A stretch of DNA of 64,000 nucleotides from a virus. Lineage: Duplodnaviria; Heunggongvirae; Uroviricota; Caudoviricetes. Positions 2,817-41,882 of the stretch are shown here, one piece after another. Position numbers and translations under genes: made by a program. The notes below the pieces were generated by a model. That model was not told the origin of the DNA. It was given only the letters and a program-made list of their open reading frames with translations, and ran no database searches. Where the stretch lies: IMG/VR virus record IMGVR_UViG_3300035042_000139. One strand, given 5' to 3'. Within the stretch, counting starts at the first letter, position 1; each line of letters opens with the position of its first letter.

Positions 2817-3037
2817 TTAAAACTTTAAAAGAAGATAATGGAGACTGGACTGTATATGATGATGAATCAATGATTGCTGCTACCATATCAATAATAAATG
2901 AATATTCTATAATTCCAGAAGATGAAAAGACTAGAAAATACAGGGTTGATATGAGCGGAAAAACAGTAAGAACATATATAAAAAACTTCAACGATGCTGT
3001 TTCTGCAGCCGCTGAAGCTATAAGAGATAAAAAGTAA
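2813..3037 (+). CDS. Hypothetical protein.
   Basis: ORF overlaps the stop of the upstream gene (ATGA). RBS GGAGG at 2802-2806. Confidence 0.4.
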   Translation: MIKTLKEDNGDWTVYDDESMIAATISIINEYSIIPEDEKTRKYRVDMSGKTVRTYIKNFNDAVSAAAEAIRDKK

Positions 3038-3288
3038 AATTATTTGCACATTAATATTGAATGTGTTATAGTTAAATTATAAAATATGTAGTATGTAGAG
3101 TGATACTTATCAAACTAAAATTAAAACAAAAAAAATAGGAGCGACCCACCAAGTCACTCCAGCAAACAAAAATAAACTAAAACAAACAGAAAAAACAAAA
3201 ATAACCATTTAATTGTTTAATTCTTGGATTAATAATAACACATATAGATAATATTAGTCAAGGGTTATTTAAAAGTTTTTCCTATTCT

Positions 3289-3335
3289 CGCCCACTGTTT
3301 GCTGGATACTTGCCAAGACTCTAGCAGCAGTGGGC
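3289..3335 (+). promoter_or_regulatory. Long imperfect hairpin (about 13-bp stem, 20-nt loop) in a 335-bp non-coding A/CA-rich region.
   Basis: GCCCACTG(3289-3296) pairs with CAGTGGGC(3328-3335). Inner pairs are TGCTG/CAGCA. Lies directly upstream of RBS AAAGGAGATG and the ATG at 3374. Confidence 0.4.
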
Positions 3336-3373
3336 TTTATTATGCTCCGAAAACAAAAGGAGATGTAGACGAA

Positions 3374-3544
3374 ATGAATAAAAAGAAAAGAGAAAGCTTA
3401 AAAAAAGCAATGGAGATTTATAAGAATAAGGAAAAACAAAAACCAAAAGGGTACATAGAGACTAACATCAGAATAAAGCATAGTATTTCAGAAAAACAAT
3501 ACGAAAGATTATTGGATTATGTTTTATGTGGCGGTGTTTTATAA
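3374..3544 (+). CDS. Small basic hypothetical protein. The ORF-track N-terminal extension from 3299 is probably not translated.
   Basis: RBS AAAGGAG at 3356-3362 precedes ATG 3374 (MNKKKRESLKK...). The 3299 start lies inside the hairpin. Confidence 0.4.
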   Translation: MNKKKRESLKKAMEIYKNKEKQKPKGYIETNIRIKHSISEKQYERLLDYVLCGGVL

Positions 3545-3614
3545 TGAAAGAAATTATAAAATCTATTAATGCTGAAAATGTGTCTAATATTATTGGTGGA
3601 GAAGGTGTTGCTGT

Positions 3615-4583
3615 ATGAGTGATAAAAAACAGCGACCACTAAAGAGGGTTGTTATAAAAGAAGAACTAGTTGAGCTTACAGGAGAGTACTTAGCAGCATT
3701 AGTTTTAAATCAGTTTATATACTGGTCAGAAAGAGTTAATGATTATGACAAAATGTTAAGTGAAGAATATTCAAGGTTAGAAAATGAAGGAATAAAAACT
3801 GATGAAGAAGTTCAGTTTAAGAATGGGTGGATATATAAAAGTGCTGAAGAAATGAATGAAGAATTAATGGTAGATATGACTGAACCTACTATAAGAAAAA
3901 GAATGACTAAGTTAGTAGAAAAAAAATGGCTACAAAGAAGGAGAAATCCAAAGTACAAGCAGGATAGAACATATCAGTACAGAGTAGATATTATACAGAT
4001 ACAAAAAGACTTACTTAAGCTTGGTTATAACTTAGATAAATATCCTTCAATAATTCAAAAGGTTCCTTATCCCCGAGATAACGCCAAAGAAAATAAAAAC
4101 GAATGCAAAGAAAATGATTTTGTTTCAAACACGAATAATTTTGGTTCAAACATAAATAAAAACGAAACATTACCAGAGAGTACTACAGAGACTACTACAA
4201 ATTCTAATAATAATAACAAAAAGCCGGGAGATAAAAATTCAGAACTGCTTGTGGATAACTTCCAAAAAGCATTCGGCAAAAAACCAAACGATTTTCAAAA
4301 GCAAAAGCTCTCAGAGTTTATTGATAAAGGTGGCGATTTTGAACTATTGCTCAAAACAATAGAGTACTGTGCACTAGGTGGCCACAACCAGACATTCTTT
4401 TTCAGGAGACTTGATATCCTGATGGACAAAGGTATTTATAAAAAAGACGACCTTAAAAAGATTTTTAGAAAAGACAATCTTAAAACAGCTGCAGGAGATT
4501 CTAATAAAACAGAGAAGAATGAAGTAGAGGATAATTATAAATGGAAGGATTTCTTTATAGATTTCGACAAGTATAAGGAGTGA
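3615..4583 (+). CDS. DnaD-domain replication initiation / replisome organiser protein.
   Basis: C-terminal 'KQKLSEFIDKGGDFELLLKTIEYCALGGHNQTFFFRRLDILMDKGIYKKDDLKK' matches the DnaD-like domain pattern (IxYA...G.....YxxxILxxWxxxGIxT). N-terminus is winged-helix-like. A low-complexity N/T-rich linker separates them. Confidence 0.55.
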   Translation: MSDKKQRPLKRVVIKEELVELTGEYLAALVLNQFIYWSERVNDYDKMLSEEYSRLENEGIKTDEEVQFKNGWIYKSAEEMNEELMVDMTEPTIRKRMTKLVEKKWLQRRRNPKYKQDRTYQYRVDIIQIQKDLLKLGYNLDKYPSIIQKVPYPRDNAKENKNECKENDFVSNTNNFGSNINKNETLPESTTETTTNSNNNNKKPGDKNSELLVDNFQKAFGKKPNDFQKQKLSEFIDKGGDFELLLKTIEYCALGGHNQTFFFRRLDILMDKGIYKKDDLKKIFRKDNLKTAAGDSNKTEKNEVEDNYKWKDFFIDFDKYKE

Positions 4584-5534: not shown

Positions 5535-5708
5535 TTGCCTACATATAATTACAGGTGTAAAGATTGTGGCCACGAGTTTTCTGAGATTCAGAAAATAAGT
5601 GATGAGCCTTTTAAAGAATGTCCAAAATGTGAAGGTGAGCTTGAAAAGATTTTTAAAAAACCACCCGGCATTCAATTTAAAGGTCCAGGATTTTATAGTA
5701 ATACTTAA
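5535..5708 (+). CDS. FmdB-family zinc-ribbon regulatory protein (TTG start). Not in the ORF track.
   Basis: RBS AGGAGG at 5521-5526 then TTG 5535. MPTYNYRCKDCGHEF...CPKCEG: CxxC-x17-CxxC with the typical FmdB N-terminus 'Y.Y.C..CGH.FE'. Confidence 0.6.
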   Translation: MPTYNYRCKDCGHEFSEIQKISDEPFKECPKCEGELEKIFKKPPGIQFKGPGFYSNT

Positions 5709-5771
5709 CTTTTTTTTAGGCTTAATGGTTTAGTTAAGTTTAATAAACTAATCAATTGAAAGGATGATTTT

Positions 5772-5909
5772 ATGTGGGGCCCGATGTTTATATTTTTTAG
5801 CCTTCTGGCTATTATGGTTTTTGCAGTTTCTATCTTTTCTATCTTTCCGAAGGTAGGAAATGCAATTAAAAAATATTTTGACTGGGAAGATGAAGAAGAG
5901 AATAAATAA
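5772..5909 (+). CDS. Small membrane protein (45 aa).
   Basis: ATG after RBS AAAGGATG. Single hydrophobic helix 'MFIFFSLLAIMVFAVSIFSIF' and an acidic C-terminus. Confidence 0.35.
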   Translation: MWGPMFIFFSLLAIMVFAVSIFSIFPKVGNAIKKYFDWEDEEENK

Positions 5910-5933
5910 TAAAAAACTAGGGGGATTTATTTT

Positions 5934-7034
5934 ATGACAGGAAAAGACAAAGGTATGATGGGGCTTATAGCATTTTTGGTGATTGTGTTTATTGCAGGTG
6001 TAGGATTTTTTATGGTAACGGATAATATCGAGCCAGGGTTTGTTGGCTATGTTTATGACCGTACCATTGACCCTGATAATCCAGATGAAAATAGTGTACC
6101 TGTATTAGAGGGTACATCAGTAATCAACCAGCCAAGGTATGGACTTGTTTGGCTTAATCCTTTTACTCAAGAAATGTATATCTCACCAACAACTATTATC
6201 AGCAGAAACTGGACTAAAAATGAGCAGGAAGGCTCAAAACAGGATGACTCAATTGAGGCAGGAACAATTGAGGGCAAGAATGTAATTACTGATATTTATA
6301 TGTCAGTTCAGCCAGAAAATGTAGCTAAGATTATTAAAAATTGGGGCGTCAAAAAAGACTTCGAGACTATTGTAGATGATGAGCTTTACGGAGTTATGAA
6401 GGGCGAGGTTAAAAAGGTAACAAGAAAAACTTCAGTCTATAACTTCCAGGCCAAGGTTAGTGAAATGCAGACAGAAATCTTTGAGAACTTAAAAGAAACA
6501 ATGTCTGATAAGTATGGCATTAGATTAATCAGGTTTGAATTTGGAAACATATTAGTGCCAGAGGAAATTCAGGCTGAGATTAACCGAAAAACATCAGCTA
6601 TTAATGAGGTAGAACTTGCTGAGCTGGATGCTAAAAGACAGGCTGAGGTTAACGCTAAAGAGGTAGCAAGACAGGAAGCTGAGTCAAAGCAGGAGCTTAT
6701 TCAAAGACAGGCAGCTGCTGATGCTGATGCTTATGAGAAGGAAAGAAAAGCAGATGCAGAAGCTTACTCTATTGAAAGAAAGGCAGAGGCTATTAAGATG
6801 GCAGCTAACAATAAATATGAAGCAGCTATTTTAGAAAAGAAAGCAGAGTTAGAAAAACAGCAGGCTTATACAGATGTGTATTTTGCTAACAGAGAGCTTG
6901 ACCTGCAGACTAAAGCTGTTACAAGCATCAATGATAAGATGAAGATTATTGTTACTCCAGAAGACGGCAGTGGTATAGGTTCAATGCCCGGTATCATGGG
7001 TATCTTAAATGAAATCAGCGGGGCGATGGAATAA
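5934..7034 (+). CDS. SPFH / Band-7 (flotillin/HflK-like) membrane-scaffold protein.
   Basis: N-terminal TM helix (GLIAFLVIVFIAGVGFFMV), SPFH-like core, and a long Ala/Glu/Lys-rich coiled coil ('EVELAELDAKRQAEVNAKEVARQEAESKQELIQRQAAADADAYEKERKADAEAY...') typical of flotillin and HflK/C. Confidence 0.65.
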   Translation: MTGKDKGMMGLIAFLVIVFIAGVGFFMVTDNIEPGFVGYVYDRTIDPDNPDENSVPVLEGTSVINQPRYGLVWLNPFTQEMYISPTTIISRNWTKNEQEGSKQDDSIEAGTIEGKNVITDIYMSVQPENVAKIIKNWGVKKDFETIVDDELYGVMKGEVKKVTRKTSVYNFQAKVSEMQTEIFENLKETMSDKYGIRLIRFEFGNILVPEEIQAEINRKTSAINEVELAELDAKRQAEVNAKEVARQEAESKQELIQRQAAADADAYEKERKADAEAYSIERKAEAIKMAANNKYEAAILEKKAELEKQQAYTDVYFANRELDLQTKAVTSINDKMKIIVTPEDGSGIGSMPGIMGILNEISGAME

Positions 7035-32082: not shown

Positions 32083-33417
32083 TTAAACTGGTTTTATTAT
32101 TGTAATCATTTCTCCCTGGGTGGATGTGAAGTGCTTGTCAAAATGCCACAACTTACCACCTTCGGGTTTTACATTTACCTTTTTTTTCGTTGATTCGTTT
32201 ATTGTTTCGAGTATCGATTTACCTTCTGCTCCTACTGTAACACCATCAGATATGTACCCATCTTCTGCATAAATGGTTCCGTTTACAAGTAATCCTAAGT
32301 TTGGTTCGTAGTATAATCTTCCTCCGAAATCTATAATGCCGCTATCTAGGTCAACCTGAGCTCCTTTTGTTTGTGGTTCATAATTTTCTGACTGAATCTG
32401 CCCTGTCCTTACTACTCCACCAGAAATAGTTGTGTAATTTGTTGTATCAGAAGTCCAATTTTCAACAGCACCAACAGCATTTTCTGAATAAGATTTAGCG
32501 TTTTCTTCAGCAGAATCAGCTTTGCTTTGTGCCCCTGATTGTGTTTCTAAGTCATTGGTTGAAGTTGCTGTACCTCCAATTACTATCTCGCCTTCAAAAT
32601 GGGCGTTTCCGTCGGGGTCTATACTAAAGCTACCGCTTGTATGTCTAATACCGTTTTCGTCTAAAAGGAATGTTCCTCCACCAGCTGAACCATTAACATT
32701 GTCGTGATTGATGGTTGCATCACCAACATCAACATCTGTCCAACTTGCAGGACTTACTATATTGCCAATCTCTAATCCGTTTTCTGTTCTTCTTGCTGCT
32801 GCTATACCAAATCTATAAAATGTATTAGGAGCAAGTCCTTCTAATAAGTAGTACGCACTATTGCTTTCGTTTACACTAAAGCTAACATTGCTGTCTTCTG
32901 TTGTAGGCACTCCAAGACCTGAAGTATCACCCTTTTTCCAGAAAAGAATAAGCATATCTGCTTTTCTTGTCCCCTGACTATATGGTGCCCACTCGACTCT
33001 AATATCTAGAGAGCCGTTGCTGTTTTCATTAACAACTATATTGGTCGGTGTTGGCTCATTAGTTGGAGACCCTTTTGTTCTGTAATTAACAGTTTCATCT
33101 AAAAGAGCGTCGTGCTGGTCTTTAGTTGTTATAGTAGCTGTGCCGTCATCATTGGCTATAAACCCGCTGACGCTTATCCACTGACTATCTTTATTTTCAT
33201 AGATAGCCTGAACCCATGCCGTATATTCAATGCCGTCTTTTAGTGTAATCTGCCTGAATGTATGCTCAAATTTTTCCTTACCGGTTTGAGCTAATACAAC
33301 AATCTCATCAGTAGGCTCAACTCCAACAGGTGTTATTGCTACATTAAATCCAAGAACAGCATATATGTCTCCTGACCAATCCCATGTTATCTTTAAGTTT
33401 TTTATAACATATGCCAT
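32083..33417 (-). CDS. Tail fiber / receptor-binding protein paralog (N-terminal anchor domain). Appears C-terminally truncated.
   Basis: N-terminal 'LKITWDWSGDIYAVLGFNVAITPVG...YTAWVQAIYENKDSQW'. Ends 'WHFDKHFTSTQGEMITIIKPV*', i.e. stops about 10 aa into the 'HFDKHLTSTKG' LamG-like module found in paralogs. Confidence 0.55.
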   Translation of the reverse strand: MAYVIKNLKITWDWSGDIYAVLGFNVAITPVGVEPTDEIVVLAQTGKEKFEHTFRQITLKDGIEYTAWVQAIYENKDSQWISVSGFIANDDGTATITTKDQHDALLDETVNYRTKGSPTNEPTPTNIVVNENSNGSLDIRVEWAPYSQGTRKADMLILFWKKGDTSGLGVPTTEDSNVSFSVNESNSAYYLLEGLAPNTFYRFGIAAARRTENGLEIGNIVSPASWTDVDVGDATINHDNVNGSAGGGTFLLDENGIRHTSGSFSIDPDGNAHFEGEIVIGGTATSTNDLETQSGAQSKADSAEENAKSYSENAVGAVENWTSDTTNYTTISGGVVRTGQIQSENYEPQTKGAQVDLDSGIIDFGGRLYYEPNLGLLVNGTIYAEDGYISDGVTVGAEGKSILETINESTKKKVNVKPEGGKLWHFDKHFTSTQGEMITIIKPV

Positions 33418-33460
33418 TATTTCACCTCTCTATTTTTGAAGTTTGCCCCCCTTTAAAAAA

Positions 33461-33751
33461 TTAAATTTCAAAATTTTCTATATTAACCATTCTATCTCCT
33501 ACATAAACATCGGCAGAGGGTTTTTTAAATAATAATTTATGGTACCTCACACCCCAGTCCTCAAACTGCTTTTCTGTGACAAAACGCCAGTCAATTTCAG
33601 TTTCAGTACCTCTAGCTGTGAAGTACCATATAGTATTTCCTTCATCATATAATCTGTTAAACATTTTTATTTTTTCTTTTTTTGGCTTAGCATCATGATA
33701 GTTTTTCTCTTGTGTACATATAGTTCCATCTATATCTACAACATATTTCAT
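33461..33751 (-). CDS. Small HAD-superfamily phosphatase-like protein.
   Basis: 'KYVVDIDGTICT' HAD motif I. 96 aa. Similar to 11902..12297. Confidence 0.45.
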   Translation of the reverse strand: MKYVVDIDGTICTQEKNYHDAKPKKEKIKMFNRLYDEGNTIWYFTARGTETEIDWRFVTEKQFEDWGVRYHKLLFKKPSADVYVGDRMVNIENFEI

Positions 33752-33884
33752 TTATTTATAGCAAGGAAACCTCATCCTAATCTTGTCTCTGATTAGGGTG
33801 GGGAGGAATTGCGTAATTTAATATCCTTACTATTTTTTCACCATCCTTTTTTAAATATTTTGTAACATTTAAGTGTTTAAATAC

Positions 33885-33913
33885 TTGACTTTTACAACAA
33901 AATGTGGTATAAT
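33885..33913 (+). promoter_or_regulatory. Consensus sigma70 promoter (TTGACT-17-TATAAT, extended -10 TGg).
   Basis: TTGACT 33885-33890, 17-nt spacer, TATAAT 33908-33913. Confidence 0.6.
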
Positions 33914-33933
33914 AGTAGTATGAGGTGATAAAA

Positions 33934-34074
33934 ATGGAACGAACACAAGTCTCTTTACCTAAATATCTTAGAGATAAACTAGATGAAGAAGGAAACAAAA
34001 AAGGCATAGGCATTTCAGAAATGGTTCGCTATATTTTATTTCAATACTATGAAGAAAGTGATAACAATGAGTAA
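33934..34074 (+). CDS. Small ribbon-helix-helix-like protein (46 aa) inside the IS element.
   Basis: RBS GAGGTGA 33922-33928. MERTQVSLPKYLRDKLDEEGNKKGIGISEMVRYILFQYYEE... has a beta-strand plus two helices of CopG/RHH type. Overlaps the tnpB start. Confidence 0.35.
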   Translation: MERTQVSLPKYLRDKLDEEGNKKGIGISEMVRYILFQYYEESDNNE

Positions 34075-35203
34075 ATCACATATCACACTACACCACATTA
34101 AATTATTTGAACCTACAAATATTAAACGTAATGAACTAAAAAAGCTTTCTCGTAACTGGAACAAAGCTATTCGTTCAGCCCTCAAAATAATTAAACACTG
34201 GGGGCTTACTGCTTACACTAAATCACATAAGCATGTATATAGAGTTGTTAAGAATAATTACAACCTCCCTTCACAGGTAGCTATTGAAGCTAATCGTAAA
34301 GCTATGGAATCTTATAAGTCTTGTCATAAAAAGTTTAGAGATAACGTTAAGTTTAACTATCAAGTACCTGTTGATTTAGTTAAGAATAAAAGTTTTAAAC
34401 TTATAAGAAAAGATAACGGTACTAATATTATAAAGATAAGCATTGAGCCTTATAACAATATCTACGTACCTATCTCTTTAAGCAACTACCACTTAAATTA
34501 TATTAATAATGATAGGTACGAGATTAAAACAGCTGAGCTATATAAACAAGATGGTGAATGGTATCTTAATTTTATACTAAGATACGAAGTGAAAGGAAAA
34601 GAAACAGACACTCATCTTGGTGTTGACCTTGGTATTATTAATCTAGCTACGTTTAGTGTAGTAGACAGCAGTGAAAATATTTTGCATACTGAACACCTAT
34701 CAGGTAAAGAGTTAAGGTTTAAACGTATGAGATATAAAAGTAAACGTAAGCGTAAAGCTTTTAAGTCTGATAGTAAGAATACTTCACTGATTAAAGAAAA
34801 CAGAATTACTAAAGAAACTAACTGGCTTATAACTAATAGAATTATTGAGATAGCTAAAGAATATAATTCTACTATTGTATTTGAAAACCTTAAGAATATT
34901 AGAAAGAATATTACTAACGATAACAATCTAAACAACTATGAGAAAAATAGTTGGGCTTACTATCAATTAAAACAGTTTGTAAAACATAAAGCTAATCTTA
35001 ATAACTTACCTGTTGAAGAAGTTAATCCTTACAAAACATCTAAGATATGCCACGTATGTGGACAAGAAGGCATAAGAGAAACACAAAACTTGTTTGAATG
35101 TACTAATGGTCACACTTTTAATGCTGATACTAATGCCAGTATAAATATAGCTAAACTTGCTATGGGTATTGAGATAGAAAATCCTTTTGTCGATGTAGCA
35201 TAG
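34049..35203 (+). CDS. tnpB: TnpB (IS605 OrfB / IS1341-type RNA-guided RuvC-like nuclease).
   Basis: RuvC-I 'HLGVDLGIINLA', RuvC-II 'TIVFENLKNI', zinc finger 'CHVCGQ...CTNGH', RuvC-III 'NADTNASINIAK'. Likely start at ATG 34067 (MSKSHITL). Confidence 0.8.
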   Translation: MKKVITMSKSHITLHHIKLFEPTNIKRNELKKLSRNWNKAIRSALKIIKHWGLTAYTKSHKHVYRVVKNNYNLPSQVAIEANRKAMESYKSCHKKFRDNVKFNYQVPVDLVKNKSFKLIRKDNGTNIIKISIEPYNNIYVPISLSNYHLNYINNDRYEIKTAELYKQDGEWYLNFILRYEVKGKETDTHLGVDLGIINLATFSVVDSSENILHTEHLSGKELRFKRMRYKSKRKRKAFKSDSKNTSLIKENRITKETNWLITNRIIEIAKEYNSTIVFENLKNIRKNITNDNNLNNYEKNSWAYYQLKQFVKHKANLNNLPVEEVNPYKTSKICHVCGQEGIRETQNLFECTNGHTFNADTNASINIAKLAMGIEIENPFVDVA

Positions 35204-35424
35204 CTGTTTAATACAGCTTACAGAGTAATCTGTAACCCACTGTGTTTTAACATGGTGGATAGGGTGAAAAAGATTCACGAGTCAACCATCCTGTAACTTT
35301 CTTAATCCTGAATCACCCACTTGTGGGTTTAAGAAGGTGCGAAAACTTGTTAATAGACTATACTGAGTATGGTTTATTACTTAACAAGCTCCCTTCTAAT
35401 CTTGTTTTTGATTAGGTGGGAGAA
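35204..35424 (+). ncRNA. Putative omega-RNA (right-end RNA) scaffold of the TnpB element.
   Basis: Non-coding stretch of about 200 nt from the tnpB stop through the right-end hairpin (35396-35415), as in characterised TnpB/omega-RNA loci. The guide would derive from flanking DNA from about 35421 onward. Confidence 0.4.
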
Positions 35425-36092
35425 GTTGACTTATTTTCCCACTTCCATTTAGCAAATTCATAATCCTCTTTGGTGTCTATATCTATTACTTCTTTGTTTG
35501 GTACTTCTATTAAAGAATGGTTGTCTTTTAGCATCTGCCCGTCTTTGAAAAAATTATCTTTATTAAAAATATGAAAGCAGTGAGCAGCTTCGTAATAATC
35601 AGGTATTTCTTTTGTTGTCAGCCTCTCATAATTTATATCTGTTAAGCATTGATTTTGATTATTAAATAACCAGTTTTTATAAACTTTTACGCTTGTTGCA
35701 TAATTGCCCTCACAGTAATCTTCATCTAAACTATCGAATGTCTCTAATGACTTTAAGATTGTTTCTTTTTTTAAAAAAGCAAGGCACGGATTTAAAAACA
35801 TTAAATGTGTATCTTCTACTTCTTTTAAGTCTTTAAATATATACTCAAGCGGGCCATCAACTAAAGCCGTAATTTTATCTCTTAAAATAACTGTTAGATT
35901 ATCATATTTTTGAGCAATCTCTACAAGCTCTTTGTCGTAGCATAGTGCATATTTATTATACTTATCTGGCAGACTGTTTAGCTTTTTACAGGCTATATCC
36001 CAAAGGTTTGTATCTCCTAAAGGAAGTACTAATTTGTTTGGAAGCCTTTCGCTTTGTAATCTACCAGGAATAAAAACTCCGATTTTTTTCAT
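35412..36092 (-). CDS. Acylneuraminate/3-deoxy-manno-octulosonate cytidylyltransferase family (NeuA/KdsB-like, CTP_transf_3).
   Basis: 'KIGVFIPGRLQSERLPNKLVLPLGD' matches 'IIPAR.GS.R.P.K.L..' N-terminal motif of CMP-ulosonic acid synthetases. 226 aa. Its stop codon lies inside the IS right-end hairpin. Confidence 0.55.
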   Translation of the reverse strand: MKKIGVFIPGRLQSERLPNKLVLPLGDTNLWDIACKKLNSLPDKYNKYALCYDKELVEIAQKYDNLTVILRDKITALVDGPLEYIFKDLKEVEDTHLMFLNPCLAFLKKETILKSLETFDSLDEDYCEGNYATSVKVYKNWLFNNQNQCLTDINYERLTTKEIPDYYEAAHCFHIFNKDNFFKDGQMLKDNHSLIEVPNKEVIDIDTKEDYEFAKWKWENKSTSPT

Positions 36093-36111
36093 TTATTAAC
36101 TCCTTTTAATC

Positions 36112-36915
36112 TCAATATTTTATACCGGGATTCTCCCTGGTATACCTTCCCTCTTCTTTGATGCAGTATTTACACTGCTCGGGAAAGTCTAAGTTTTGAA
36201 GTCTTAACTGCAGGTCTTTTAGCTTTTTAGAATCCAGTATTGACCTGATACTTTCGTTTTTTATGTTACCAAGTACAAATTCCTGGTGGATATTATTATC
36301 GCTTCTGAAGTTGCAGCAGGGCATCACATTGCAGTTGTAGTCTATCCCAAGAAAATGAAAAGGCTCATAACATTTCTTTTTTCTTATTTTTTTATCTGCT
36401 TTTTCTAAAGAGCCCGCCCTGTCTCCAAAGCTTTCCAGTCTGGCCCAGTCGCTAACATACACTACTTCCATGTCGTGACCAAAACCGTATATCTTATTAT
36501 CTATTATTTCTGTTATCTCAAAATTTAAATCTTCCATTCTTTGAATACAGTAGCCTAAACCTTTGTTGTCGTAATCCATTATTGAAAGCTCATCTATCTC
36601 AACTCTATCTAAAATTGAGTTTGTAAGATAATCTCCATTGGTGTTTGTTACAAGTCTTGCTTCAGGTAATAACAACCTTGCTTTTTTAGTATACTGAGCA
36701 AAAATTTCTTTCAAAGCAAAAGGTTCATTATACCTTGAGTAACTTATTGTTCCTTTATAATCGATGGACTTGAGTTCGTTTAAAATATTTGTATAATTAG
36801 TCTTAGGCAGTATCTTTTTTATCTTTCGATTTATATATTTATTAGGACACCAACTGCATGTTCTGTTGCAATAGCTGTGTATTTCTATTTCTACCATTCT
36901 TAGATTAGTGTACAT
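36112..36915 (-). CDS. Radical SAM / SPASM-like domain protein (paralog 3).
   Basis: 'VEIEIHSYCNRTCSWCPN', 'TNTNGDY', 'LSIMDYDNKG', C-terminal 'CYEP...MPCCNFR...LGNI...C.YC'. Confidence 0.65.
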   Translation of the reverse strand: MYTNLRMVEIEIHSYCNRTCSWCPNKYINRKIKKILPKTNYTNILNELKSIDYKGTISYSRYNEPFALKEIFAQYTKKARLLLPEARLVTNTNGDYLTNSILDRVEIDELSIMDYDNKGLGYCIQRMEDLNFEITEIIDNKIYGFGHDMEVVYVSDWARLESFGDRAGSLEKADKKIRKKKCYEPFHFLGIDYNCNVMPCCNFRSDNNIHQEFVLGNIKNESIRSILDSKKLKDLQLRLQNLDFPEQCKYCIKEEGRYTRENPGIKY

Positions 36916-36950
36916 TTTGGCCCCCTTTTTATTCTTTCCTTCTATATATA

Positions 36951-36979
36951 ATTATACCATATTCTGGACCATTTTTCAA
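36951..36979 (-). promoter_or_regulatory. Sigma70-type promoter on the - strand (TTGAAA-17-TATAAT, extended -10).
   Basis: Reverse complement of 36951-36979 is TTGAAAAATGGTCCAGAATATGGTATAAT. Lies between the fiber gene 36998.. and radical-SAM paralog 3. Confidence 0.5.
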
Positions 36980-36997
36980 GTTGTTTATTAAACTAAA

Positions 36998-39634
36998 CTA
37001 AACCTCTGTTAATACTACATTTGTGGGTGTATTTGTGTTTGTTTTAGGGTGCAAATCAACGAATGGTGTTCCGAGTTCATACCAGTTATTGATTTCTTCT
37101 TCTGTTACGTCTCCATCTTTTATTAGTACTTCGTCATAGATGTTGTTTGGTTTAAACTGTAACTTGCCGGGTTCGGTTATATCTATCACGGCATTCGGTA
37201 CTGCATTTATTTGATTACCGTTTAGATAAGCTGTGCCGTCAGGCTTGATGGTGTACATTTTGTACTCATCATCACTATCAGTAAAGATATATGCCTTAAC
37301 TTCTGATAGAGTAGGGGTTATGGTTGTTGCACCAGTGCTGAGTTTGAGCCTTACATCAAGTGTCGTTGGACTTGTTGGCAGGTTAGGAACTGAGCCCCCA
37401 TTTTCACACAATTGCCATGAAGAACCATTATCTACGCTTGTTTCTACTTTTAATGAGCTTAAGTCAGTTATGTGCCAGTCAAAAAAATAATAATAATAAT
37501 CAGCAGCATTTGTTCCAGTCATTGTTGCTATATTATATTTACTTTCATATGGAAATGTTGCTGCACCCGGAATCCTTCTTAATGGCGTGGCGCTGGTATT
37601 TGTTACCCTTCCTATTCTGTAGCTTCCAGGTTCTAACACCCAGCCTATATCTATCCTCTGCTCTCCTGAAGTTGATATATTGATAGTTTTGTCTTTTATA
37701 TAGCCTCCGCTACCATCCTGTAATGTTATAACAACATCACCTGTAAAATTAGCATCAATAAGCACACTATCAAGTCTCATTCTTCTATGAACATCAAAAT
37801 AGATTAATCCATTATTACCGTGATAACTTCCCCCCATGCTATCTCCGAAGTTCTCTTCTTCGATGTAATTTCCTTCCCACTCTATTAAACTATCAGTAAC
37901 ATTATTAATATCAGATAGATTTAGTTGAGGTGATTGTCGGGTGCCAGATTTTTTGTATTGTTCTATATAGATATTATCCAACCCAGTTCCATTAACATCA
38001 GTATATCTTGCAAAAGAATGAAACTTGCCTTCATCAACTACTCCTTCTGGGGCTGAAACTTCCCAATCCCAATTCTCAGGCTCAGAGTCTCCTTCAATCC
38101 ATATTTTAACTTTAATATCAGAACTATCTTTAAACATTTTTATATTAAACCATTGACCAGCCATATTATAATAGTTGTATTTTGTGTCAGAAAATAAAGA
38201 AGTGCTTGCCCCACCTATTAAAGATAGTAGTTCTATTTCATAATCTCCGCTTTTGTAAGTCCTCATGTAAAAGGTTAATCTATCATCATCACTATTCCAT
38301 ATAGGAGATACATAGTATTGGTCCTGTGATGAACCATGACCATTGTTCATAAATTTAAAATTTATAGTTTTTTTACCAGACTCAATAACGTTGTTAATAG
38401 TATATGCAGAAATATTGTCTGCTGTATGTCTTAAATATCCATTGTCAATATCAAAATTGCCTGTCCAATTATTTGAGTTTAAAAAATCATCTTCAAAAGT
38501 AGGTTTTAATAACTCAACCCCATCACCAACAACTTCTACATCAGTTAATATTCCTTTACTAAAATCCTCGTTTGTATTCTCTACTAAACTCGTAACACCT
38601 TTTCTGTAGAAATTAATTGTTTTATTATCAGTATTGATAGGATAGTTAAGCTTACCTTTGTCTCTGGTTGATTCTGTGAATGAGGTTGAGAATATACTTT
38701 TTTCTACTTGAACTTTTTTAAAGTATACAAAATCAGTATTAGGATTAAATGTAGTTCCATTTTCTTTTGGTCTTATAGACAAATATCCTGATTGGGTTGT
38801 ATCTTTAGGGTAAATAAACCCCTCTCTTTTAACAAAAAAGATATCATTATGTAGCTTCTCAACTGAAAAATTTCCGGTTGTAACCAAAGACATGTTCACA
38901 TAATTAACAGACCTTATTTCTGAGTGAAATTTGTGCTGTGCATTAGTTTTAAAATAAAACGAAGTAGAATAAGCAGTATTAGCTTTTAAACTAACACCTT
39001 TAAGGCGCATGCAGTATGGATATGTTCCACTGTTCCAGGTGCCACTTAAACTATACTTTTTCCAACCATTTTCATCACTAATATAAGTTAAAGAAATTCC
39101 ACTCGTTCCTGATATTCCATTTGATAAATTCTCAGTGCTTTCCTCTATGGCCACAGCTCCATCATGTTTTCCATCTTCTCTTATAGTTACTTCATAGCCA
39201 GCTTCCGGCTCCAACCCCTTAGTAGAAGTTAAATGCTTATCAAAATGAATCAGCTCGTCATTGTCTTTTATGTAGCGTGAATCGAAATATTCTTTTGCAT
39301 TCTGTTCTGTTTCATCTGCTATTGTGTCTACATCAGTAGAAGATACTATGGTTGGTGTTCCGTCATCAGGTACTGTTATCTTACCCGTAGTCTGCCAGGC
39401 ACTATCTCCACCTTCATAAATAGCCTGCACCCAGCCCTGATATTCTCCATCAGCATTAATAGTTATATTTTCAAAAGTATAAGACCTTGATGAGGCTTCA
39501 ACTCTTGCCTTTGCAATTGACTCACTGTTTGGGTTGCCACCATAGGGGGTTATGGCAACATTAAACCCCCTTAAGGCAAAGGTATCTCCCTCCCAGCTCC
39601 ATGTTATATTTCCGTCTCTGTTTTGTTTGTTCAA
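36998..39634 (-). CDS. Tail fiber / receptor-binding protein paralog with LamG-like domains.
   Basis: N-terminal anchor 'NITWSWEGDTFALRGFNVAITPYG...YQGWVQAIYEGGDSAW', 'HFDKHLTSTKG' module, segments shared with 27388..31203, and the family C-terminal motif 'YDEVLIKDGDVTEEEINNWYELGTPFVDL'. Confidence 0.6.
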   Translation of the reverse strand: MNKQNRDGNITWSWEGDTFALRGFNVAITPYGGNPNSESIAKARVEASSRSYTFENITINADGEYQGWVQAIYEGGDSAWQTTGKITVPDDGTPTIVSSTDVDTIADETEQNAKEYFDSRYIKDNDELIHFDKHLTSTKGLEPEAGYEVTIREDGKHDGAVAIEESTENLSNGISGTSGISLTYISDENGWKKYSLSGTWNSGTYPYCMRLKGVSLKANTAYSTSFYFKTNAQHKFHSEIRSVNYVNMSLVTTGNFSVEKLHNDIFFVKREGFIYPKDTTQSGYLSIRPKENGTTFNPNTDFVYFKKVQVEKSIFSTSFTESTRDKGKLNYPINTDNKTINFYRKGVTSLVENTNEDFSKGILTDVEVVGDGVELLKPTFEDDFLNSNNWTGNFDIDNGYLRHTADNISAYTINNVIESGKKTINFKFMNNGHGSSQDQYYVSPIWNSDDDRLTFYMRTYKSGDYEIELLSLIGGASTSLFSDTKYNYYNMAGQWFNIKMFKDSSDIKVKIWIEGDSEPENWDWEVSAPEGVVDEGKFHSFARYTDVNGTGLDNIYIEQYKKSGTRQSPQLNLSDINNVTDSLIEWEGNYIEEENFGDSMGGSYHGNNGLIYFDVHRRMRLDSVLIDANFTGDVVITLQDGSGGYIKDKTINISTSGEQRIDIGWVLEPGSYRIGRVTNTSATPLRRIPGAATFPYESKYNIATMTGTNAADYYYYFFDWHITDLSSLKVETSVDNGSSWQLCENGGSVPNLPTSPTTLDVRLKLSTGATTITPTLSEVKAYIFTDSDDEYKMYTIKPDGTAYLNGNQINAVPNAVIDITEPGKLQFKPNNIYDEVLIKDGDVTEEEINNWYELGTPFVDLHPKTNTNTPTNVVLTEV

Positions 39635-39650
39635 AGTCTACACCTCTCTT

Positions 39651-41882
39651 TTAATTCCAACTCATTGTAATTGAGGTTGGCTCCGGAACATCTATTGTAA
39701 GTTCAGGGTCAAAAAATGGTTTCTGCATATCATACCAGTTTTTTATCTCTGCTGCTGAATTTAATTCTGTTGAGACCATCAGTTCATCATATACTCCTGT
39801 GTTTAATGTTATATTTGGTGCACTAACTGTCATGAAGCTTGTGGTAGCTCCGTCATTTCTCTCTCCATTCACATACTTCTCTCCGTTAGACTTTATTACA
39901 TAATGGTCAAAAGAACCGCCTAATGTGCTTGTATAGTAGACTGATATAGTATAATCTGTTAAACTGCCGAAGTTATACGACAGGCTACTGACTACTTCTG
40001 CTGCTCCACCGAATTTGCCTCCATCTTTGTGCAAATTAACATCATAACCTGAGTTAGGACCTACTCCATCAGTAGATGTTATATTTTTATTAAAGTGGAA
40101 TAAATAGGTTGTGTTTGGATTAACTATATGAGCGTGTGTTAAATCTTTTGTATACTGTTCTGCATTAGTAGCAAGTTCCCAATGAGAAGCTGTGAAGTTT
40201 CCTGTTGAACCATCAGCTGTTGTACAGATTTTCATATCAACATTATCCGGGCCAAGCCACCACATATCACCTACATCATAAGGAGAAACTGGCTCATTTG
40301 TGAATATTGTCTTCTTTTTATCAGCGGTCCCTTGAGCTTCTCCTGCAGCTTCCATAGCGTCTATTGCTTTCTGGTCTGTTATCTCATTCCAGCCTGCCCC
40401 ATCCCATCTTTTAAGCTTCTGAGAACCTGATGTATTGTCATACCAGAGGTCTCCTTCGTGAGAGGCATCAGTGCCAGCCCAGCTTGTAGAAGGGTCTGTT
40501 GAGCCAAACCAGGTATCTATCTTACCGTCAATCTGGCCTGTTAAATCGTCAACTGTATCTGCAAATGTCCCGTCTATGAAAGTATTTACTGTTGTGTCAT
40601 CTGTATATTTTACTGCCTTTTCCCAGTCGTTTGAGCTGTAAGAACCTGTGTCTGATTTAGGAGTAATACAGCGGTATAAATCTCCGCTTTCTCCTTCTGT
40701 CCATAAATCTCCGACATCATAAGGTGTCGTTGGAGTTGTGACAAAAACTCTTCTTTTCTGGTCAGCTAAATCTTCAGCACCTCTTGCTGTTGTCAAAGCT
40801 TCAGTCAAGGCGTTATCTGTTATTTCTGTCCAGGAATATGAGCCTGTTGAGCCTGTAAAACGGTAGGCTGTACCTGTTACATTATCATAGTAGATATCTC
40901 CCAGGTGAGAATTTCTGATATAGTAATCTGTATCATCAGTTGATGCATTATCTTCTGTTTCCCAGTCTGTATATGGCTGGCTTGTTAAGCTAGGTACCCC
41001 ATCCATAAACCAGGTTGTTATATTGCCATCTAGCTGGTTTTGGAGTTCTGTCATATTTTGAGTCATGCTGTCTACAAAATTCTGGTATTCTGTTCCTGTT
41101 GCATAGTCAGCAGCTTTCTGCCAGTCATTTACTGAATAACTTTCGCCTTCAAGCTTTGCAGTTTTACAGACATACATGTCTCCTGCTTCACCCTGTGCCC
41201 ACATATCACCTACATCATAGGGGGTTGTAGGAGTTGAGGTAAAGATTCTTCTCTTTTCGTCTGCTGTATCCTGAGCCTTAGAAGCGTTATCGTAAGCGTC
41301 AATTGCTTTCTGGTCCTGTATTAAAATCCAGCTTCCTGCAGAACCGTCCCAGTTATATCTTTTAAGCTGGTTTGAGGTTCCGTTGTACCACATATCTCCG
41401 TGGTGTTTTTCCTTTTCAGAAGCTGTTGTCCAGTTTGTCTCAGGGTCAGTTGAGGTAAACCATGTTTCTATCTTGCCGTCAATTTGTGTCTGCAGTGCTT
41501 CTTTATCTGTTGTGTACTGGCCGTCAATAAAGGTCTGAACTTTATCTGCGGCTACAGTGTCAACTTCATCAAGTGAAGCTATTGACGGTGTTCCATCATC
41601 TTCTATAACCAGAGTACTTGTAGAAAGCCAATCACTATCCTCGTTTTCATAAACTGCCTGAACCCATGCTACATATGTATTGGCTGTATCTACTGTTATA
41701 TCTCTAAATATATATTCATAAAGTCCGTTTTTGTTTTTTGTGGTTCCTGCAGATGCATAAACTGTTGCATCCTGTCTTGGGTCTCCCCCTGAAGGGGTTA
41801 AAACTACATTAAATCTTTCTAATGCAAACTCATCACCAGACCAGTCCCATGTTATCTTTGCGTTTCTTATTTGTTTATTCAT
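39651..41882 (-). CDS. Tail fiber / receptor-binding protein paralog with internally repeated modules.
   Basis: N-terminal anchor 'AKITWDWSGDEFALERFNVVLTPSG...YVAWVQAVYENEDSDW'. Three internal repeats of a 'TPYDVGDMW..GE.GD.Y.C' module. C-terminal LamG-like 'FHFNKNITSTDG...YDELMVSTELNSAAEIKNWYDMQKPFFD'. Confidence 0.6.
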   Translation of the reverse strand: MNKQIRNAKITWDWSGDEFALERFNVVLTPSGGDPRQDATVYASAGTTKNKNGLYEYIFRDITVDTANTYVAWVQAVYENEDSDWLSTSTLVIEDDGTPSIASLDEVDTVAADKVQTFIDGQYTTDKEALQTQIDGKIETWFTSTDPETNWTTASEKEKHHGDMWYNGTSNQLKRYNWDGSAGSWILIQDQKAIDAYDNASKAQDTADEKRRIFTSTPTTPYDVGDMWAQGEAGDMYVCKTAKLEGESYSVNDWQKAADYATGTEYQNFVDSMTQNMTELQNQLDGNITTWFMDGVPSLTSQPYTDWETEDNASTDDTDYYIRNSHLGDIYYDNVTGTAYRFTGSTGSYSWTEITDNALTEALTTARGAEDLADQKRRVFVTTPTTPYDVGDLWTEGESGDLYRCITPKSDTGSYSSNDWEKAVKYTDDTTVNTFIDGTFADTVDDLTGQIDGKIDTWFGSTDPSTSWAGTDASHEGDLWYDNTSGSQKLKRWDGAGWNEITDQKAIDAMEAAGEAQGTADKKKTIFTNEPVSPYDVGDMWWLGPDNVDMKICTTADGSTGNFTASHWELATNAEQYTKDLTHAHIVNPNTTYLFHFNKNITSTDGVGPNSGYDVNLHKDGGKFGGAAEVVSSLSYNFGSLTDYTISVYYTSTLGGSFDHYVIKSNGEKYVNGERNDGATTSFMTVSAPNITLNTGVYDELMVSTELNSAAEIKNWYDMQKPFFDPELTIDVPEPTSITMSWN

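Follow-up and report, generated by a model that had tools for sequence, protein, structure and literature searches.

We analyzed a 64,000-nt stretch of DNA from a Caudoviricetes virus (IMG/VR record IMGVR_UViG_3300035042_000139; hereafter the window, meaning this stretch at its full length), in which a segment at 33752-35430 holds a hairpin-bearing left end, a promoter, a small arc gene, tnpB, a structured non-coding tail and a hairpin-bearing right end. Between 17.3 kb and 64 kb, the only long open reading frame (ORF) on the plus strand is that of tnpB (34049-35203, 384 aa) and the rest are on the minus strand, in agreement with a preliminary description of the window that had placed tnpB alone on the plus strand of a minus-strand block. 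We consider it very likely that the segment is a structurally intact, non-autonomous IS200/IS605 element of the tnpB-only (IS1341-like) type, which carries an Arc repressor gene, resides in a ~200-kb phage and would be able to home by the mechanism proposed below. It adds a member to a known kind, since both Arc-containing IS605 elements and TnpBs of phages have been described before.

The TnpB protein, read from the ATG at 34067, matched the Pfam family Cas12f1-like_TNB (PF07282) at 1.6e-17 and OrfB_IS605 weakly, and PHROG transposase families at 7.9e-35. Against solved TnpB/Cas12f chains (PDB) the best E-value was 1.7e-13 over 125 residues, and in the alignment to these chains GVDLG, FENL and NADTNAS fell on the catalytic motifs. 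The RuvC residues D187, E273 and D354 (numbered from ATG 34067) and the zinc-finger ligands C328, C331, C345 and H349 (CCCH) were invariant in 14 family members, comprising the window protein and 13 relatives with 55-87% identity. The preliminary description had called TnpB complete-looking, with RuvC and zinc finger intact, and had named a loss of catalytic residues as evidence to the contrary; no such loss was found. It had also left the choice between an IS1341-like and a domesticated element, and the first label stands with the mobile ends and the empty site described below, while the second falls with the intact triad and ends. Likewise, a nuclease-dead domesticated TnpB of the TldR type was rejected, given the intact triad, the presence of both ends and the filled/empty polymorphism among related phages.

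Table 1. Positions in the window of the parts of the element and of the genes and motifs that border it
Feature	Position	Strand	Remarks
Whole mobile element	33752..35430	+	1,679 bp; left end, promoter, arc, tnpB, omega-RNA scaffold, right end
Target-adjacent motif TTCAT	33747..33751	+	abuts the 5' end of the element; reverse complement of ATGAA, the start of the HAD-like gene
Left end	33752..33815	+	7-nt variable leader TTATTTA, conserved TAGCAAGGAAAC, imperfect palindrome 33770-33803, outer GCAA/TTGC stem (33761-33764 with 33809-33812)
Element promoter	33885..33913	+	TTGACT-17-TATAAT, with TG upstream of the -10 hexamer
arc	33934..34074	+	46-aa ribbon-helix-helix (RHH) protein MERTQVSLPKYLRDKLDEEGNKKGIGISEMVRYILFQYYEESDNNE; overlaps tnpB start by 8 nt
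tnpB	34067..35203	+	378 aa from ATG 34067; ORF open from ATG 34049 (384 aa)
Omega-RNA scaffold (predicted ends)	35196..35430	+	~235 nt; begins near the tnpB stop codon, includes the right-end hairpin and ends with the element
Right-end imperfect palindrome	35389..35422	+	CTCCC-t-TCTAATC ... GATTAGG-t-GGGAG; the right end closes 8 nt on, with AGTTGAC
Predicted guide	35431..35450	+	TTATTTTCCCACTTCCATTT; 16-20 nt; antisense to the 3' end of the cytidylyltransferase gene
Cytidylyltransferase gene	35412..36092	-	Pfam CTP_transf_3 1.8e-07; last five codons (STSPT) and stop inside the right end of the element
HAD-like small phosphatase gene	33461..33751	-	PHROG 1238 at 1.6e-25; weak Pfam HAD matches; ATG overlaps the TTCAT motif

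Insertion site and ends of the element

A search of viral contigs with the cytidylyltransferase next to the element led to an IMG/VR contig of 203,584 bp (L008; 97% amino acid identity), in which the insertion site is empty. The DNA of L008 is 92-96% identical to that of the window on both sides, and the two BLAST pieces abut, with the whole 1,679-bp segment including the hairpins missing; they meet at window positions 33751/35431, with a 6-nt overlap that comes from a repeated TTATTT. In the plus orientation the empty site is TTCAT|TTATTTTCCC (also given as TTCAT|TTATTTT). The junction in L008 has the sequence ...GGGAAAATAA|ATGAAATATG. Since L008 reads ...TGGGAAAATAA|ATGAAATATGTTG, which is the minus strand of the window less 33752-35430, the insert consists of 1,679 bp directly 3' of TTCAT (33747-33751, plus strand). 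It lies without target duplication between the overlapping stop and start codons (ATGA) of two phage genes, antisense to both.

The ends could also be read from relatives. About 35 family loci were collected from seven contigs that encode the protein and from pattern scans of genomes and metagenomes that were filtered by a profile of the 3' region. The right-end pattern used at first, CAAGCTCC-N(8-34)-GAAGYTGAC, lacked specificity and gave at least 120 viral matches; of the 81 listed, none matched the scaffold profile, and all the matches were taken as chance. A tighter right-end pattern gave 11 genome loci and about 24 metagenome loci, and no true viral copy was found with it. Conservation across the ~35 loci runs to GAAGYTGAC (GAAGTTGAC in the window) and is followed by unrelated flanks, and because it stops so abruptly there, the last base of the element is 35430. 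On the left, conservation of the element begins just past TTCAT, with 7-8 variable element bases before the conserved block. TTCAT stood 7-8 nt 5' of the conserved TAGCAAGG in 11 of 13 independent family insertion sites, and the sequence before it was unrelated from site to site, indicating that TTCAT is the target-adjacent motif (TAM); the two exceptions were TCCAT (L003) and ATCAC (the divergent L007). Thus, the ends at 33775 and 35424 and the TTAC-like target motif of the preliminary description have to be replaced by 33752, 35430 and TTCAT.

In the 64 kb, the 21-nt core CTAATCTTGTnTnTGATTAGG of the end repeats was found at 33777 and 35396 and nowhere else (0.08 occurrences expected), and the two hairpin copies are in direct orientation and 82% identical across 28 nt. 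The near-identical hairpin repeats reported earlier are therefore real, and a search of the window for further copies returned none. Folded as DNA, the left end reached -9.7 kcal/mol (z = -3.8) and the right-end palindrome -7.4 kcal/mol (z = -3.0). In the window both ends have a long CTAATC...GATTAG stem, and in L007 both have a shorter stem-loop of another sequence; such matching of left and right stems within each element would follow from both ends being read by one transposase.

The hairpins sit at gene ends and one of them overlaps a stop codon, as they would if both were resident terminators or regulatory repeats of the phage and tnpB were a stand-alone or domesticated gene between them. 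The preliminary description had held that related genomes with the hairpins and without tnpB would speak for ordinary terminators. The sister phage L008 gives the opposite picture, lacking the tnpB and both hairpins alike, and the empty site without hairpins refutes this alternative, to which we leave next to no probability. Moreover, the same hairpins accompany tnpB into unrelated bacterial contexts, no terminator-like site and no T-run was detected on either strand in the region scanned around the element, and the catalytic residues are intact, unlike those of nuclease-dead TldR-type domesticated TnpBs. The locus instead has the features of an IS200/IS605 element, namely a TnpB with split RuvC and zinc finger, asymmetric ends with subterminal palindromes and no terminal inverted repeats, and insertion 3' of TTCAT.

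The non-coding tail and the predicted guide

Nineteen distinct family copies were aligned over the stretch between the tnpB stop and the right end, and the resulting consensus has nine helices with 62 pairs, 29 of which keep pairing through changes on both sides. By an independent count, pairing held in 98.0% of cells, and on each of five measures the observed value exceeded what was reached in all 500 shuffles. When the 3' partners were slid by 1-3 columns, only 39-45% of cells were paired, with 3-7 compensatory pairs. Folded by itself, the scaffold sequence of the window reached -82.8 kcal/mol (z = -6.8). The non-coding tail of the element is a conserved, covarying structured RNA, and the omega-RNA that had been expected past the tnpB stop fits this structure check. 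Two pairings are available to CAGC at 35214-35217. It can pair with GCTG at 35203-35206 in a local hairpin across the tnpB stop, which covaries in relatives, or alternatively with GTTG at 35425-35428 in a predicted long-range helix that would close the scaffold and has only one-sided changes; five relatives with CAGT also have GCTG or GCAG at the 3' site. No Rfam family was matched in 33000-36500 at E <= 1 or in the window at the gathering score. An IStron, with a group I intron at the 5' side, was rejected on the same Rfam searches, and the left end comprises only ~130 nt of hairpin and promoter.

Because the scaffold ends at 35430, the guide is predicted to start at 35431 (TTATTTTCCCACTTCC...), which places it ten bases beyond the ~35421 proposed before. 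In the empty-site phage L008, TTCAT is followed by the 23 nt that lie directly outside the right end in the window. Within the window, the combination of TAM and guide has a near-match only at the right-end junction itself, TTGAC|guide, with two mismatches in the TAM. A right-end terminus that differs from the TAM is the usual way in which ISDra2-type elements spare their own donor site. The locus thus has the sequence features of an OMEGA system: a structured RNA spanning the 3' end of tnpB and the right end, and a guide outside the right end that matches a TAM-linked empty site.

The element can be compared with ISDra2 and the Geobacillus IS605 elements on which the homing model was built (Meers et al. 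2023, PMC10055086). Like those elements, it has a TnpB of ~380 aa that contains both the RuvC D-E-D residues and a zinc finger, and its ends are asymmetric, each with a subterminal hairpin. It likewise inserts without duplication on the 3' side of a fixed pentanucleotide, has an omega-RNA (here predicted) over the tnpB 3' end and the right end whose guide comes from the flank, and closes with a right terminus unlike the TAM, by which the donor is spared. The window element differs in its TAM (TTCAT), in a zinc finger of CCCH rather than C4 type, in having no tnpA in the element or the window, in a TnpB sequence that is remote from solved TnpBs and from all those of deposited phage genomes, and in a scaffold without an Rfam model. 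Base-exact ends, the TAM, a predicted guide and a covariation-supported omega-RNA are now set for a TnpB lineage of Halanaerobiales and phages (CCCH, 378 aa) that is remote from those characterised, and this compact nuclease-guide pair is a candidate for heterologous trial.

The arc gene and the relatives of the element

The promoter matches the consensus at 11 of 12 positions, as no other site does in the 2.5 kb scanned (33300-35800). The earlier claim of a TTGACT-17-TATAAT promoter therefore stands, except that it is near-consensus rather than 'perfect'. A Shine-Dalgarno-like GAGGTG precedes the arc ORF, the product of which gave weak Pfam RHH_1 and RHH_5 matches in the window and precomputed RHH_1 matches in relatives. 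Among the relatives, R3, Q5, S7, L8, the K23-G24-I25 turn, S28, E29, R32, Y33, I34 and Y38 are invariant, and R3, Q5 and S7 belong to the predicted DNA-reading strand. As for gene order, arc lies upstream of tnpB in most family copies (the window, L164, L184, L003, L001, L170, L002, L004, L155, L182, L159, L168 and L178), is truncated in L163, L162 and L177, and is absent from a few (e.g. L007 and L005). The RHH-like ORF pointed out previously is thus conserved beside tnpB.

An Arc-like RHH ORF in TnpB elements was first noted in PMC10690162. By ChIP-seq and reporter assays, IS605 Arc proteins, including those of 'arc and tnpB alone' elements, were found to bind and repress the strong promoter of the element (Moon et al., bioRxiv 10.64898/2026.09.24.754181, a September 2026 preprint). 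The RHH ORF of the window is this already described IS605 'Arc' repressor. The promoter spacer in the window contains an imperfect palindrome, TACAACAAAATGTGGTA, as a candidate Arc operator, and the family promoters keep both their position and a palindrome in the spacer or over the -10, such as CTACAT-N4-ATGTAG in L002 and TATAC-N3-GTATA in L004 and L182. By analogy with the elements of the preprint, the palindrome is probably the operator of Arc. The window element has in common with these Arc-containing IS605 elements a ~46-aa RHH microprotein encoded within the element beside tnpB and a strong sigma-70-type promoter with a palindrome over its core elements; the 'arc and tnpB alone' type was among those tested in the preprint. 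The differences lie in gene order and setting. In many elements of the TnpA/TnpB-associated Arc clade of the preprint, arc goes with tnpA and diverges from tnpB over a bidirectional promoter, whereas arc in the window is upstream of tnpB, co-directional and overlapping by 8 nt in one operon; and the preprint elements come from Clostridium/Petroclostridium, whereas the window element sits in a phage genome and belongs to a Halanaerobiales family.

The same gene order, with a small RHH gene just upstream of a co-directional tnpB and then a long 3' untranslated tail, is found in the archaeal RHH/MazE-TnpB clade (Altae-Tran et al. 2023, PMC10691335), for which a toxin-antitoxin relationship has been proposed. 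By this parallel, arc and tnpB would form an addiction pair in which the RHH protein neutralises TnpB by direct binding and not via the promoter, a reading that we consider very improbable. The archaeal clade is immobile and has a rearranged catalytic site, whereas the window pair has its D-E-D triad in the canonical positions and belongs to a mobile element for which ends and an empty site are known, in a bacterial/phage setting with Halanaerobiales bacteria as relatives. In addition, the 46-aa Arc is a bare RHH domain with no extra tail, the family members without arc (L007 and L005) retain an intact tnpB, and IS605 Arc proteins act on the element promoter (bioRxiv 10.64898/2026.09.24.754181).

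A protein search placed TnpB in a compact family with 54-100% identity, whose named members are Halanaerobiales (Natroniella, Frackibacter and Anoxybacter); one protein (P0001) was 100% identical to the TnpB of the window. Among deposited phage genomes, a megablast search with 32500-37000 gave no match and tblastn with TnpB gave relatives at <=29% identity only, and a search of IMG/VR for related loci with TnpB found nothing. The best TnpB match among deposited phages was in an uncultured 484-kb phage (LR756508.1) with six TnpB-like places. The true genomic copies (L136-L152 scan) were from Halanaerobiales (Natroniella sulfidigena, on three contigs, and several metagenome-assembled genomes (MAGs)) or from an unclassified Bacillota MAG. 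Given that all true genomic copies of the family have this origin, the phage host is probably a halophilic anaerobe of the Halanaerobiales.

As the preliminary description had noted, there is no tnpA in the window, and the element is therefore non-autonomous and cannot transpose alone. In the bacterial contig L001, a canonical IS605 element with a Y1 TnpA gene divergent from that of a 414-aa TnpB is found at 571-2468, 3.4 kb from an arc-tnpB copy, and its end hairpins are nearly identical to those of that copy. It is plausible, by analogy, that a TnpA of the L001 type is supplied in trans. Two solo end-like hairpin copies, possible miniature derivatives, are also present in L001 (2950-3037 and 3662-3750). 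In Anoxybacter fermentans (L005, CP016379.1; 59% TnpB identity), a 79-aa Y1 transposase fragment in the same orientation (5704-5943) occupies the place where arc sits elsewhere, which suggests that the arc-tnpB form descended from a tnpA-tnpB element. Bacterial remnants of the family were seen at L138 4240-4496, L148 3860-4065, L141 6603-6716 and L163 ~3000-4470; they consist of the scaffold and right end with little or no tnpB, or are truncated on the left inside arc.

Related phages and the phage locus

The element was also present at the same site, and 100% identical, in a distinct close relative of the phage, a contig of 212,659 bp (L164). The right flanks of L164 and the window differ at 62 positions in 1,661 bp (~4%), and other aligned segments are 93-97.5% identical. 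The identical run between the two, 33552-35512, is 1,961 bp long and consists of the element with 200 bp on its left and 82 bp on its right; the next-longest identical run in the ~8.5 kb alignment is 378 bp, and the Poisson probability of such a run is ~1e-10 even at the lowest local rate. In a third sample (ENA ERZ27245808), a contig of 1,939 bp (L183) is 99.95% identical to the window across both junctions. This contig breaks 119 and 141 bp outside the element; breaks of this kind are what one would expect from an assembly graph that forks at an identical element shared among diverged phage strains.

An element that is 100% identical in phages with a ~4% diverged right flank fits recent spread from phage to phage, plausibly by TnpB-driven homing. 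Further, the presence of the same insert in diverged genomes, identical together with short stretches of its flanks, and of an empty allele in a third genome fits the footprint expected of recent horizontal copying by homing. The three related phage genomes thus show the empty allele, the filled allele and the identical element in a diverged background, and this triad is a concrete and testable case for RNA-guided homing between viruses. Phage homing endonuclease genes (the T4 family, and the PhiPA3 intron endonuclease, PMC11620839) resemble the element in being selfish nuclease genes predicted to target the allele of related phages in which they are missing, and in leaving identical inserts with short co-converted flanks in diverged backgrounds. 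In the window element, the target would be chosen by an RNA guide and a 5-nt motif and not by protein, the element can also transpose, and homing in phages is deduced from the sequence pattern.

From the established TnpB/OMEGA mechanism, we propose the following course of events. The promoter would transcribe arc, tnpB and the scaffold and read out into the flank, and the transcript would be trimmed to an omega-RNA whose 3'-terminal 16-20 nt from 35431 form the guide. TnpB with this omega-RNA would cut DNA in which TTCAT is followed by the guide sequence, that is, the empty allele of sister phages, while the filled allele, with TTGAC in place of TTCAT at the right end, would escape cutting. 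Repair of the break from a filled genome would copy the element in (homing). Arc would bind the promoter palindrome and hold expression down, and first entry into the phage would have occurred via a Y1 TnpA in trans, from a host IS605 with matching hairpins.

Several points weigh against this reading of the element and its homing. The 64-kb window contains no TnpA-like ORF (best tblastn E = 0.029 over 33 aa), and no tnpA is linked to the host of the phage, which makes the proposed first entry tentative. The left end opens with TTATTT (33752-33757), and the right flank begins with the same 6 nt (35431-35436); IS200/IS605 elements make no target duplication, and a 6-bp repeat is thus unexpected for the family. 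With this repeat, the AAATAA (minus strand) just upstream of the HAD-like ATG is the same in the filled and empty states, and the left-end leaders of other family copies differ (CTAAAATG and CAAAGTG). The repeat may be due to chance in AT-rich DNA or to selection restoring the sequence upstream of the HAD-like start; the closest non-identical copy (L163, TnpB 94% identical) has no left end and is uninformative on the age of the TTATTTA leader. The ends of the omega-RNA, the guide length, the use of the TAM by TnpB and cleavage are all inferred for this element from its sequence. Some Arc homologues showed no specific binding (bioRxiv 10.64898/2026.09.24.754181), and binding to the window promoter is predicted only. 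Concerning the spread, the left flanks of L164 and the window have 3 differences in the 458 nt available (0.7%), so that the contrast comes mainly from the right flank, and the identical tract could also arise by ordinary recombination of co-circulating phages without a TnpB cut.

The element might be a real insertion sequence that has become an inert passenger. After a single TnpA-mediated insertion in an ancestor, its identical copies in two phages would then be due to ordinary homologous recombination or a recent sweep of the segment, and not to TnpB homing. The missing tnpA in the window, a near-identical left flank (3/458 bp) that allows for a ~2-kb recombination tract merely containing the element, and the many decayed remnants among bacterial copies of the family all agree with such a passenger. 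However, the catalytic residues, zinc finger, promoter, arc, scaffold pairs and both ends are all intact, the 1,961-bp run is five times longer than any other in 8.5 kb and resembles co-conversion around a homing site, and empty and filled alleles coexist among related phages, and on this evidence we think an inert passenger rather unlikely. We suggest, tentatively, that the element is an RNA-guided gene drive, possibly a weapon of competition, between co-infecting jumbo phages, which would cut TTCAT followed by the guide sequence in sister phages and convert or damage them as homing endonucleases do. If so, the 1,961-bp perfect tract and the empty allele in a third phage would be a natural footprint of TnpB homing between viruses. 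Taken alone, the element is unremarkable, being an insertion sequence from a well-studied family that comes with an accessory repressor recently characterised elsewhere.

The stop codon of the cytidylyltransferase gene (35412-35414) lies within the right end of the element; the protein ends in ...WKWENK* in L008, where the TGA overlaps the next ATG, and in ...WKWENKSTSPT* in the window. This confirms the suggestion that the right hairpin region supplies the stop and that the 3' end of the gene was remodelled. The ATG of the HAD-like gene, which in L008 overlaps the cytidylyltransferase stop as ATGA, is parted from that gene by 1.68 kb in the window. The preliminary description had assigned the surrounding genes to a tail-fiber operon, a label that is plausible and thinly supported, as the only PHROG 'tail protein' match was that of the ORF at 39651-41882. 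The 64-kb window contains no tRNA genes and, at the gathering score, no Rfam family. Two large structural proteins with similar N-termini (ITWDWSGDIYAVLGFNVAITP and ITWSWEGDTFALRGFNVAITP) are encoded on the minus strand at 32083-33417 and 36998-39634. Between their genes, at 33461-36915, lies a small cassette resembling one for sugar modification, which is made up of the genes for a radical SAM/SPASM protein, the cytidylyltransferase and the HAD-like phosphatase.

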